In this document: positions 4,301-10,300 of the stretch, piece after piece
Layout: the number at the start of each line of letters is the position of its first letter
How positions within the stretch are numbered: the first letter of the stretch is position 1
Assembly (NCBI RefSeq): GCF_030013205.1
Contig: NZ_CP122648.1
Length of the DNA stretch: 64,000 nucleotides
Source: Escherichia coli
Lineage (GTDB): Bacteria; Pseudomonadota; Gammaproteobacteria; Enterobacterales; Enterobacteriaceae
Direction: 5' to 3' (one strand)
Position numbers: made by a program

Positions 4301-7300
4301 GCCCTGATTGCGAAATCTCGCGATACCTTTATTCGTCTGCTGAACGCCACCCCGAACGGTGTGATCCGCAACTCCGACGTGGCAAAAGGTGTGGTCGAAA
4401 CCTCCCTGAACGTCGGTGTGGTGACCATGACTGACAATAACGTAGAAATTCACTGCCTGATCCGTTCTCTGATCGACAGCGGTAAAGACTACGTGGTGAG
4501 CATGCTGGATTCGCTGGGTAAACTGGCTGGCGCGAAAACCGAAGCGAAAGGCGCATATCCTGGCTGGCAGCCGGACGCTAATTCTCCGGTGATGCATCTG
4601 GTACGTGAAACCTATCAGCGACTGTTCAACAAGACGCCGAACATCCAGATTATTCACGCGGGCCTGGAATGTGGTCTGTTTAAAAAACCGTATCCGGAAA
4701 TGGACATGGTTTCTATCGGGCCAACCATCACCGGTCCGCACTCTCCGGATGAGCAGGTTCATATCGAAAGCGTTGGTCATTACTGGACACTGCTGACTGA
4801 ATTGCTGAAAGAAATTCCGGCGAAGTAATTACGATAATGTCCACGCCTGCGGGCGTGGACAACTGTTTGAAGCCAATGGCTATCTATATCGAAATAACAA
4901 AACATTATGAAACTCATGAAAAGGTCGCATATTTATATAGCTGCGACCATATTTCATGGGGAGAATTTCTGATCACCAAAGAAAGTTTTGCGCTGGAATC
5001 CGTGAAAGAACTTAAGGGTGAAAAGCAGAAATTTTATATGTTCAGAGCCTGGGGCAAAGTCAGGAGAGCATACTTAACCACGGGAGAATTCCCCCAGGAA
5101 ACATGTTACGCCGCTTAAAGTCAGAATAATTTTTTCATGCATTTACCATTTTGGCATTACGCCTGCACCACATGGCAATGGCGGCAACCACTAATGCCAG
5201 TTCCAGTAAAAACGACCAGTGTAATAAAAAATTGAGCCACCACGGATGATGTACCGCCGTAATATGAAAGAATGCAAACGGTTGGTTAACGAAAGGCATC
5301 AGCCACCAGATATCACCGACCAGCGTATCGAGTAATAAATGGGTGATACTATTCAGGCAAAACACCACACCCAGCCACGCCGGAAGTTTATTCTTCGCAA
5401 TTGTGGCCCAGAATAACGTCGCCGCCAGCAGAGCTGGCCATAACAATGGCCAATGTGTAGGGTAAAGATGATGATGTCGTTGCCCGTTATCAACCAGATA
5501 GCACCAGAAAAGATCAAAATCGGGCGCAATGGCCCCAACTAAGCCAATAACCATCACCCAGCGCGCATGACGAGCAATCAGTGGCAAGCGTTTCACTAAA
5601 GTACAAGTTATTAAATAACCAGCCGGAAGATGACCGATAAACATGACGATTCCTTTCGTTTTTCCCGCCGCTTTCATGTAGAAAACGGCGGGAGACATTC
5701 CTCAATTACACAGCGACAAAAGCCATCCCTGTAAACGTTCGTCGCGGGTTGCCACGTTCAATCTGGTGATGGAACATTCGCCGCTGCGATTTCAGCGCCG
5801 CGCTATTTTTCTGTTGCTGCTGCTCCAGCTTCCAGGCAATCAGCAATCGCGCCAGCCGTTTGTTAGCATGCTGGCTGCGCTCTGACTGAACCTTCACGCT
5901 AATCCCGGATGCCAAATGCGTGGCGCGTACCGCCGAGTCGGTTTTATTGACATGTTGACCGCCCGGCCCCGACGAACGCAGCGTCTCATACCGGATCGCA
6001 TCGGATTGCTCCTGCTCATCAGCGGTAAAACGCCCAATGCCCAGAAACCAGTTTTTGCGCCCATGATGAGGCCGATACGGACTCGGACAAATCCACTGAA
6101 TAGTGCCGCACCAACTTTCGCTTAATGCCCATGCATTATCGCCATCCAGAGAAACCAGCGCTGAACGCAGCGTGTCAGAGTAGCGGCCCGTTTCTGTTTC
6201 CAGCACCGTTACCGCGACGTCTTGTCGGGTAGCTTCTTTAATCAGCCTGTCCAGTGCCTTTTTCACTGCGAGACAACATTCTTCCGGCCCCTGAGCTGAG
6301 GAGAGTTGTAGCAAGATCATCCTTTTTTCCCTCCACTGTTTTTGAGCGTTAGCACCGGACGCAGTCGCGCGACAGGAATAATTAAACCGGCTTGCACCAG
6401 ACATTGCACCACGCTTTCTGCCGATTTATAGGCTTGTGGCGCTTCTTCGAAGATGAGTTGTTTATCGCGACAAATCACCCGGCTGCCAAGTTCAGTACGC
6501 GAGAGTTGCGTCGCCGTGTAATTCGCTGCCAGACGCCCTTTACACTCGGTGCGCCCCCATTTACGCCCTGCCCCATGCGCCAGCGAGTGGAGCGTTTTTT
6601 CGTTCGCAACAGGCTCTACAAGCCAGGAGTAATCGCCGCGTGAACCGGGAATAATCACCAGACCGTTGTCATCCGGCGTGGCACCTTTACGATGCAACCA
6701 GCCCTGTTGATCACCGATTCGACACGCGCTAACAAAGTTATGCGCCACATCCAGAACCGGACTTCCCATGGCTTTCACTTGTTGCATTATGCGCAAAGCA
6801 ATCAGCTGGCGATTAATACGCGCAAACGCCAGCGCATCGTCATGTTCCGCAATATACCGTAGCGCGTCGTCACTGCCTTCAGGCAAACCATGATGCGAAA
6901 ACGAGGCAATATGCCGCTGTAAAATAGACTGCCCCAACCCCCTCGAGCCGCTATGAACCAGCAGTTGCAGATGCTGCGCATCCAGACCTGCCAATGCAAA
7001 CACTTCAGCGTCGATGATTTCATCAACTTGTTGCAGTTCTGCGAAGTGGTTTCCGCCACCGATAGAGCCAAGCGAGCTGCGCCACGGATGCTGTGCAAAT
7101 GCTGACGGCAGGTTTTCCTCCAGCCAGCTTTCTTCAGCAACGTCATCCAAAGCTGATAATCGCTTTTCAAACTTATCGGCGTTGTATTTACGAGCGAGAA
7201 TATCTGTTTGCCATAGCGCCATGCCACAGCCGATATCATTGCCGACCAGTGCCGGGTAAAAACGGCCTACGGAGAATAACGCTGCGCCAATCGGATAGCC

Positions 7301-10300
7301 GCGTCCGGGGTGTAAATCTGGCATCCCTACTACGCGCTGCATGTTGGGTAAATTTGCCGTGGTGTGTAATTGTTGGATCGCTAAACTCTCGATCCACAGG
7401 TCATCAGATGCGATGGTAAATACCGCATAGGATAAGGGACGAATATATTTGCCCATGTACCATTCCATTTATACTCGTCATACTTCAAGTTGCATGTACT
7501 GCGGCTGCGTTCGTTCACCCCAGTCACTTACTTATGTAAGCTTCTGGGGATTCACTCGCTTGTCGCCTTCCTGCAACTCGAATTATTTAGAGTATATAAA
7601 TATTAAAAATCAGGAAATGGCAGACGAATCCAGGGCAAGAAAAAAAGAATTAATCCTGGAAAGGTCTGCAAAGAGTCATTGATAAAGGATTTGTCATGAT
7701 TTACCTCCTTGCAGTTTGTGGAATAAGAAAACGCGCACATATTAGAAGGGCGTTATTTTCATTGCAAGCTGGATTTAATGTTGCGGTTTATAACGCATAT
7801 AAAAATTAATAAACCACGCTCCCCGGCATTCAACGCGCTGCTGCTTAACTGTCTGAAAACCATAACGTTCAAAAAAGGGTTTTGCGGTTATGCTGGCGTC
7901 CACCGTAAGTTCGGATTCAGACTTAATCAAAGGTTTTAACAAAGCGCTGGCAACCCCACGGCGGGTGTATTCAGGGTCAACAAATAACATATCGATATAA
8001 TGTTCAATGCGGGAAATAAAACCAACCGGTTGTGCATTAATGATCGCAACCCACACTTGTGATTTCGCGAGTTTCTCCTTCCAGCGAGATTCGTCAATCT
8101 GCGCCCAGGCGGCAATTTGTTGTGGTGAATAATGCTGACTGGCGGTCATCGTAACCGCTCTAATGAAAATAGCGCATAGTTGCTGAAAATCGCCAGGCTG
8201 ATAATCTCTTATTTGTATGTTATTCATAATATAAATTCAAAAACGCATGCGAAACGCTTCTGCCATTTTTCCAATTTTATGCATTTGGTTGTTATCTCGA
8301 GCCAGTTTATGAGGTTCAGGCTTCAGAATGGCAATGAGCAACCATGCTTGCTCATCAAACGCACCCTGACAATATACCAAATGCGCTTCGTCATTCGTTC
8401 TGCTGAATTGGCGCAACTGTGGCGGAAATGGATTATTCACATTTGCCAGATGAATATGAGCAACTCGCTCAAATTTGATTAATGGCCAGGTAAACGAGTC
8501 GTCGTAGAGTGCATCGCGACCAAATATATCTGGCAAAATACCGTCACGCTTATAGGAAATAAAATCCGCCGTTAACGCATCAAGTTCCTCTGCTGTAAGT
8601 TGCAGGCGAATAAGTTTTGTTTTGAATACCCGCATCCTTATTCCTTAAAGTCATTGAAATCATCATCCGTCATATCATTAAGATATTGTTCAGCGCGGCG
8701 TGTAATTTCCTCTAATCTTGCGGCACTCGGACGGAAGCGCGCCTTCACCAGTTTTTTCTCCTCTTGTTCTGCAAGCATGTCCATTAACGCTTCGAATGCG
8801 CTGGCACTTAAGAGATATCCTGCGGGGCGATTATTAGAAAGAACCGCAACCGGTTGATCAATAAAGTATTTTGCTGGATTTTTACGTAACTCAGTGATAT
8901 TGACCGATTTTTCAGCGAGAATTCGATGCATACAGTGATACCCTCATAATAATGCACACCAGAATATACATAATAGTATACATCATAATCCCAGCACCAG
9001 TTGTCTTTCCATTTGCGGGTCAAGCAACGTCACATGCAGCCCCACCAGCCGCACACCGCGCCCGCCGCGACGTTCATCCCAGGTTTTACGCGCGGTGGCA
9101 ATTAAGTCAGCTTTATTCAGCCGCGGCCAGACGTGCTCCTGAGTGGTTTGCTGAAAATCGTCGAACTTTAATTTCACCCCCTGGCGAGCAATCAGTAAAT
9201 CAGGTTTCACCTTTGCCAGACGGCGTTCAAGTTCCGGATACAGCCGCTCGATAATCGCTTCACATTCAGACCAGTGATGAATATCTTCCGCCATCGTGCG
9301 TTCCACGCCGACGGATTTTCGTAACCGTTCGCTGTTAACGTCGCGCTCGTCAATCCCCTGACTACGCTCCCACAAAATGCGGCCAAATTTGCCAAAACGT
9401 TTGAGCAGAGTCACCAGATCACACTTTTGCACATCACCGCAGGTCCGCAGCCCCATCGCTTCCAGTATTGCCGCCGAGACTTTGCCGACGCCGGGAATTT
9501 TTGCCAGCGGTAAGGTTTGCAGAAATGCCGGAACTTCTGCCGGCGTAATCACAAACTGGCCGTTGGGTTTATTCATGTCGGAGGCGATTTTAGCGAGAAA
9601 CTTTACTGGTGCCACGCCCGCAGACGCCGTCAGTTGCAGCTCGTTGAAGATTGTCTGGCGGATTTCCTGGGCGATGAGGGTCGCAGAACCGTGGCAATGG
9701 ACGCTATCAGTGACATCGAGATAGGCTTCATCCAGTGACAACGGTTCAATACGCGAGGTGTAGCGCGAGAAGATTTCACGGATATGATTTGAGGCTTCTT
9801 TGTAGGCGTCAAAGCGCCCCGGAAGCAAGGTGAGATGTGGGCATAATTTGAGCGCCATCCCAGTAGGCATAGCGCTACGTACGCCAAATTTACGCGCGGG
9901 ATAATTGGCGGTGCTGATCACCCCCCGACGTTCGCGGCTGCCGCCAATAGCAATAGGGATATCGCGCAGGGCGGGATTGTCGCGCATCTCCACTGCGGCG
10001 AAAAAGCAGTCCATATCCACATGAATGATTTTACGCATTGCTCACCTCTCAACACTGGTAAAGTATACAGTGATTTCAGGGTTTGAGAAATGCGTAAAGA
10101 TTCAGCATCTAGCGCGTTCGCTGCGAAAGCACCTGCTGCTTATCCAGCTTTTGCACCAGCGGCTGCACCACTTTATCCCCATGCTGACCAAAGTATTGAT
10201 ACAGCGTATCGGACGCACTTTTGGTCAGCACCATAATCTCAATGCGTCGGTTGCCCGCGCTTTGCGGATTTTTCGCGTCCAGCAGCATCTGGTCCGCCAT

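Follow-up and report, generated by a model that had tools for sequence, protein, structure and literature searches.

A 64,000-nucleotide stretch of Escherichia coli contig NZ_CP122648.1 (assembly GCF_030013205.1), referred to below as the window, carries between yafP and pepD an intact chromosomal module encoding the RNA ligase RtcB2 and the release-factor homologue PrfH, the two genes being translationally coupled. Three co-directional open reading frames (ORFs), all on the minus strand, lie within positions 5135-7468: rtcB2, prfH and a gene for a predicted membrane protein of the YdjM/DUF457 family, called the hydrolase gene here after its annotation. We read the locus, with a probability of roughly 0.8, as the known RtcB2-PrfH rescue and repair operon in intact form, accompanied by an ancestral YdjM-family neighbor that is functionally independent of it and by an orphan immunity gene. 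The core of this finding is already known, the system having been characterized and structurally solved, and its novelty is nil. The features on which the argument depends are the following.

6317-7456, minus strand: rtcB2, RtcB-family RNA ligase of the PrfH-associated subfamily, 379 amino acids (NF007153, TIGR03073)
6317-6320, minus strand: ATGA, overlap of the rtcB2 stop codon (TGA) and the prfH start codon (ATG), read from the sequence
5706-6320, minus strand: prfH, peptide chain release factor H, 204 amino acids (TIGR03072)
5664-5692, minus strand: GC-rich hairpin of 12 bp in the prfH-hydrolase spacer (fold energy)
5135-5644, minus strand: YdjM/DUF457-family membrane-protein gene, 169 amino acids (PF04307); 'metal-dependent hydrolase' in the Prokaryotic Genome Annotation Pipeline (PGAP), with the same coordinates
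4837-5118, plus strand: small ORF as annotated ('hypothetical', 93 amino acids); revised start 4876, 80 amino acids
4832-5713, no strand: variable segment of 882 bp holding the 80-amino-acid ORF and the hydrolase gene (genome alignments)

The rtcB2 product matched NF007153 at 636 bits (cut-off 407), with residues 1-378 aligned to positions 1-378 of the 379-position model, and matched TIGR03073 over its full length at 618 bits (cut-off 272). All of the RtcB signature motifs are kept (MPDLHPG, GNDIGCG, GGGNHF, HSGSRG, AHNF, HRKGAT and AHGAGR); the catalytic and metal-binding motifs align with those of T. thermophilus RtcB, and AHGAGR contains the nucleophile His294, which accepts guanosine monophosphate (GMP). 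The protein is 97% identical to the RtcB of strain LHM10-1, and among five divergent E. coli haplotypes the ratio of nonsynonymous to synonymous polymorphism (pN/pS) of the gene is 0.15. Position 7456, giving 379 amino acids, is most likely the start of rtcB2, because the NCBIfam match then runs end to end and the published H294 numbering is reproduced. An earlier note on this DNA had correctly recognized three ORFs between 5135 and 7468 and a ligase gene with all catalytic motifs; it did not name the strand, and its upper limit of 7468 is most likely 12 nt too far out.

The prfH product matched TIGR03072 at 328.5 bits (cut-off 166.65), and the models for RF1 and RF2 gave partial matches below their cut-offs; the protein is a short class-I release-factor homologue that has no N-terminal domain. 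The GGQ motif occupies residues 120-122, its glutamine being Q122. Aligned with chain 8 of PDB 7SA4 (E = 7.9e-135), the protein differs by four substitutions in 202 residues, or ~98% identity, and pN/pS for prfH in the same five haplotypes is 0.06. A GGAGGG sequence lies ~10 nt upstream of the prfH start, which overlaps the rtcB2 stop codon as has been described for rtcB-prfH pairs of this family (PMC1586002). The full-length prfH with GGQ and the coupling through ATGA that had been proposed from the sequence are both upheld; the two genes are intact, and their products aligned with the family models from end to end.

The reaction performed by such pairs is established. Colicin E3 or CdiA-CT cuts 16S rRNA between A1493 and G1494; PrfH frees the peptide from the cut ribosomes, after which RtcB2 seals the rRNA of the 30S subunit, and the pair, which reverses the damage, protects cells in vivo (PMC9304027, PMC9223846, PMC13166195). 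RtcB2 of E. coli ATCC 25922 joins 16S rRNA cut at A1493/G1494 in the 30S subunit but leaves cleaved tRNA unligated; H294N is the published dead mutant of RtcB2 and Q122E the published mutant of PrfH, and a plasmid carrying rtcB2-prfH alone protected MG1655 (PMC9304027). In the present strain, a ribotoxin of the colicin E3 or CdiA-CT type would cut the 16S rRNA at the same bond, PrfH would sense the damaged decoding center and release the peptide via GGQ (Q122) so that the stalled 70S ribosome could be split, and RtcB2 would reseal the 16S rRNA once the 30S subunit is free, by way of a His294-GMP intermediate. We infer these rescue and repair steps from the 97-98% identity of the two proteins to those that have been studied. 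The link to repair or rescue of damaged ribosomes made in the earlier note was right and already published (PMC9304027, PMC9223846, PMC13166195, PMC1586002).

The closest characterized counterpart is the operon of E. coli ATCC 25922 (PMC9304027, PDB 7SA4; PMC9223846; PMC13166195), which occupies the same yafP-pepD slot and has the same two genes joined by an ATGA overlap. Its RtcB2 has the same length and catalytic His294, and its PrfH, the solved chain, shares Q122. PrfH ends in ...AFVAV here, where the solved chain has Ile202; the PrfH of LHM10-1, which has a short spacer, ends in ...AFIEG, also with Ile. As a marker of the long and short variants this C-terminus (VAV versus IEG) holds in the E. 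coli strains compared and fails in E. whittamii, which combines IEG with the hydrolase gene, and it was therefore not used to assign ATCC 25922.

In K-12 MG1655 the orthologous locus, with flanks 96-97% identical, lacks positions 6232-7249, a stretch running from the 3' portion of rtcB2 into the 5' portion of prfH, and ykfJ (b0235) and prfH (b0236) are annotated as pseudogenes. That K-12 retains only fragments of what is complete in this strain had been anticipated, and the K-12 deletion of 'about 1,000 nucleotide' has been known since 2006 (PMC1586002). K-12 also lacks the 882-bp segment: between prfH and pepD there are 882 bp here, compared with a 61-bp hairpin spacer in K-12, LHM10-1 and most other E. 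coli. Among 5426 complete genomes of the species, 2714 contained the region lost by K-12, and 2674 contained at least 80% of it. Roughly half of these genomes thus keep this region, and ~6% also keep the older, longer form with two extra genes.

The third gene is, as the earlier note had it, a DUF457-like gene on the same strand as the pair; its ORF matched the Pfam family YdjM (PF04307) with E = 3.8e-9 over model positions 4-166 of 176, and its close homologues all carry PF04307. The gap of 8 bp to prfH given there was an artefact of taking the longest ORF. The gene starts at 5644 (169 amino acids) and not at 5698: the start MFIGHLPAGY... (ATG 5644) is common to 66 of 66 aligned homologues and to PGAP, the PF04307 match begins at residue 21 of the longer ORF, and in two of five E. 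coli haplotypes a spacer longer by 1 nt puts the upstream ATG out of frame. With this start the prfH-hydrolase spacer measures 61 nt.

By its pattern of variation, the third gene qualifies as a real YdjM-family gene, for a predicted membrane protein, under purifying selection. Across the five E. coli haplotypes it has a pN/pS of 0.21, as many as 26 synonymous differences separating a pair, and the ORF is intact in all five as well as in three other Escherichia lineages. A set of 67 sequences contains 23 invariant columns, among them H5, D42, D44, D52, H58, H59, H64, H102, D106, H142 and E148. The AlphaFold2 model is confident (predicted local distance difference test score 88) and has six helices, and hydrophobic windows are present in the sequence; solved structures resembling the model were limited to generic helical bundles. 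These data leave next to no room for the idea that the ORF is a decaying remnant without function, as might be supposed from the moderate Pfam score and from the many E. coli that do without it at no known cost: a remnant would not be expected to be intact in every haplotype compared, to have accumulated mainly synonymous differences or to preserve invariant His, Asp and Glu residues.

The hydrolase shares with E. coli YdjM, the founder of PF04307 and a LexA-regulated inner membrane protein, the Pfam family, a small polytopic character and conserved His and Asp residues. It differs in being distant from it, as the E value above indicates, in belonging to a separate subfamily, most members of which come from Pseudomonas, Acinetobacter and Betaproteobacteria, and in having no LexA box. 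Control by LexA and the SOS response was considered and rejected. No LexA box (CTGT-N8-ACAG, one mismatch allowed) was found in 1037-10054, the nearest being dinB's own at 10055, and CTG-N10-CAG occurred upstream of hydrolase homologues in just 7 of 83 regions. A literature search on DUF457/YdjM returned no functional study, its top match, DUF4579, being a false one.

Relatives of the hydrolase were collected by a scan of one genome per species, which found 104, and the best 80 were examined. RtcB2 and PrfH were encoded within 6 kb of the hydrolase gene in 4 of these 80 species loci, all of them at the dinB-pepD slot of Enterobacteriaceae (Escherichia sp. MOD1, a divergent 'E. coli' representative, E. 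whittamii and Superficieibacter electus). In the other 76, mostly from Pseudomonas, Acinetobacter, Alcanivorax and Betaproteobacteria, the pair was nearby in none; a PrfH-like match beside the homologue in Sulfuricella (locus L080 of our set) proved to be an ordinary prfB. In K. aerogenes (L004 versus L099-L101) the slot reads either yafP-hydrolase-pepD, in one strain, or yafP-rtcB-prfH-pepD and behaves as a replacement hotspot, and in Citrobacter farmeri and the Klebsiella oxytoca group rtcB-prfH lies directly beside pepD with no hydrolase gene. Because the gene is common to other Escherichia species and to Superficieibacter, it is probably an ancestral, patchily retained occupant of the variable enterobacterial dinB/yafP-pepD slot. 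The earlier note's description of it as an addition does not agree with its presence in E. whittamii, cryptic Escherichia lineages and S. electus.

Within E. coli, the 882-bp segment occurs in 329 of the 5426 complete genomes (~6%, with ~94% lacking it), always on the chromosome and always at this locus, in copies 93-100% identical to that of this strain. Pairwise synonymous divergence (dS) of the hydrolase gene reaches 0.27 among the five haplotypes; given this and the 93-100% identity, the presence/absence polymorphism is old. A recent horizontal insertion of the whole segment, hydrolase gene and small ORF together, into this lineage could account for its rarity, for a GC content of 0.40 in the small ORF and 0.47 in the hydrolase gene against 0.51 in the window, and for the kinship of the small ORF with a toxin-immunity family, typically horizontally mobile. 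We regard such an insertion as quite improbable, since the polymorphism is old, the segment is never on plasmids, and the hydrolase gene is identically placed in E. whittamii, Escherichia sp. MOD1, a cryptic lineage and S. electus, with K. aerogenes carrying it in this slot too. Neither S. electus nor K. aerogenes has the small ORF, so that part of the segment alone may have been inserted later.

The opposing account of the locus is that the YdjM-like protein is a third defense component, co-transcribed with the pair and working at the inner membrane, for instance as an obstacle to the import of nuclease colicins or of contact-dependent inhibition (CDI) toxins, with RtcB2-PrfH repairing the rest. 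Several observations weigh in its favor and against functional independence of the hydrolase. All three genes point the same way and the spacer scans detected nothing resembling a terminator or a promoter, so that the hydrolase gene may depend on transcription of the operon. The three-gene order is kept between Escherichia and S. electus despite protein identities of 66-78%. Full-length rtcB2-prfH is present in 327 of the 329 segment-bearing E. coli and in ~46% of the others, a difference that linkage and phylogeny confound. Next to the hydrolase gene is an orphan toxin-immunity gene, and homologues elsewhere follow creD, originally reported as a locus for colicin E2 tolerance (cet). The direct check of PrfH loci for PF04307 neighbors covered the Enterobacteriaceae, and for this uncharacterized YdjM subfamily the case for independence is distributional, not biochemical.

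Against a third component stands the distribution of the gene. An accessory component would co-occur with rtcB-prfH across unrelated lineages, and the hydrolase did not: the 76 species loci have no rtcB or prfH nearby, the hydrolase gene and the pair are alternatives in K. aerogenes, and of the 2674 E. coli genomes that keep the K-12-lost region only 327 (~12%) have the hydrolase gene, leaving ~88% with the pair's region and no hydrolase. The two genes alone sufficed to protect K-12, and MG1655, the strain so protected, itself has no hydrolase gene. The literature treats the unit as a two-component operon, and the occasional accessory genes that it lists for release factor H-RtcB loci encode tetratricopeptide repeat (TPR), Pol-beta nucleotidyltransferase and zinc-ribbon (ZnR) proteins, with no YdjM among them. 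PADLOC anti-phage annotation gave no matches for the four proteins of the locus. A third component is therefore unlikely in our judgment, the co-function suggested in the earlier note finds no support, and the tempting reading of the locus as a three-gene operon is removed as unsupported. Judged by gene distribution, the link of the hydrolase gene to rtcB2-prfH is positional.

Functional independence leaves room for shared transcripts. The spacer hairpin at 5664-5692 lies in a 91-nt region with a fold energy of -29.5 kcal/mol (z = -3.3) and is followed by AAAAA, with no U tract; a scan of the 61-nt spacer found neither a terminator-like nor a sigma-70-like promoter site, and the hairpin was not called a terminator. 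The hydrolase gene would probably receive read-through transcription from rtcB2-prfH past this non-terminator hairpin, and co-transcription of the three genes, as far as gene arrangement can indicate it, is plausible. Among eight Escherichia haplotypes the stem hardly changes, its positions being paired in 97.9% of cells, and the loop varies. Covariation was rejected as support for the hairpin: the single compensatory pair, a C-G to U-A double change in the stem, is compatible with chance (59 of 500 shuffles, eight sequences). S. electus has a different hairpin in the equivalent spacer. In Escherichia sp. MOD1-EC7003 (L011, 5908-5939) a 16-nt tandem duplication (TTTTGTCGCTGTGTAA) across the prfH stop extends the spacer to 77 nt.

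If the hydrolase has a role of its own, our best guess, made from the neighborhoods of its homologues, is one in the inner membrane or envelope, because in 10-11 other species these homologues lie directly downstream of creB-creC-creD. The cre genes are the sole recurrent neighborhood found for the subfamily, with creB-creC-creD upstream and on the same strand in 10-11 of the 76 loci. When the three partly overlapping gene clusters are merged, creB, creC and/or creD are near the homologue in 14 loci (L021, L034, L040, L045, L048, L051, L060, L066, L067, L073, L080, L083, L085 and L088). In 11 loci creD precedes the homologue on its own strand, directly abutting the hydrolase ORF in L080; creC and creB likewise precede it on that strand in most of their loci, and in two they lie downstream in opposite orientation. 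This YdjM subfamily, uncharacterized and repeatedly encountered behind creBCD in other proteobacteria, is of modest interest.

The small ORF beside the operon was revised to 80 amino acids, with Met14 of the annotated protein (4876) as its start, from which 16 of 16 representative homologues align. Its closest homologue, 58% identical, is encoded 10 bp behind the gene of a complete Salmonella Rhs protein of 1683 amino acids, and also after orphan Rhs C-terminal fragments. A homologue 40% identical lies 3-50 bp after a non-Rhs protein of 578 amino acids whose C-terminal 133 residues share 52% identity with the Rhs C-terminal domain (the related loci are L091-L093 and L096-L097). One C-terminal domain on two scaffolds, each with a homologue of the small ORF behind it, is the signature of a toxin-domain/immunity pair. 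When E. coli genomes were searched by DNA with the Salmonella cassette, the immunity part alone matched (310 genomes) and no toxin DNA was found, so that the small ORF has the character of an orphan immunity gene; no cognate toxin gene adjoins it in this strain either, its upstream gene being pepD. From these relationships, the 80-amino-acid ORF is a probable orphan immunity protein for an uncharacterized polymorphic-toxin (Rhs-type) C-terminal domain, standing outside the operon.

The small ORF resembles known immunity genes of Rhs- and CDI-type polymorphic toxins, which include orphans, in the spacing of its homologues 3-50 bp after toxin genes, in encoding a small protein and in its low GC content; it differs in having no toxin gene beside it and none detected by the E. 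coli DNA search. Its pN/pS is 0.54, calculated from few substitutions. Plasmid copies were considered and dismissed, the single match being a chromosome-sized record. The toxin domain carries the motifs RFDPD, HEYFES(K/R)FE and TAH; relatives of it were found in none of Pfam, NCBIfam and PDB, fold comparison gave nothing informative, and the immunity family has no Pfam or NCBIfam match. The orphan immunity gene thus points to an undescribed toxin domain, a minor lead of modest interest. A perfect 9-bp hairpin (GTCCACGCC-TGCG-GGCGTGGAC) at 4839-4860 on the plus strand lies directly 3' of the pepD stop codon, inside the spurious extension of the small ORF, and probably represents the 3' hairpin of pepD in this variant of the locus.

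The presence of both extra genes beside the pair allows a more speculative proposal, that the 882-bp segment makes the repair operon a counter-toxin island in which the YdjM protein, co-transcribed with the pair, limits the entry or action of nuclease toxins at the inner membrane and the immunity protein blocks an uncharacterized Rhs-delivered toxin. We think this a long shot; if true, three layers of defense against contact-dependent and colicin-type toxins would stand side by side.

The window is chromosomal E. coli DNA, and its positions 4700-7900 are 100% identical to E. coli strain K_EC180. The flanking features are as follows.

2652-3110, minus strand: gpt
3371-4828, plus strand: pepD
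7474-7597, minus strand: intergenic repeat of the enterobacterial repetitive intergenic consensus/intergenic repeat unit (ERIC/IRU) type, 18 bp upstream of the rtcB2 start
7775-10038, minus strand: yafP, yafO, yafN and dinB

The repeat at 7474-7597 matched Rfam V_AS5 at 49.5 bits (E = 5e-9), under the gathering score, and contains what we take to be the ERIC primer sequences; strain LHM10-1 lacks 74 bp of it (7498-7571). Either the promoter of rtcB2 is situated inside or beyond this repeat, or the operon is read through from yafP. Between dinB and yafP, the yafN-yafO toxin-antitoxin pair (8237-8931) is missing in several E. coli strains (L002, L009 and L010), in which dinB abuts yafP, and yafO of strain WP8-S18-ESBL-07 contains an internal stop.

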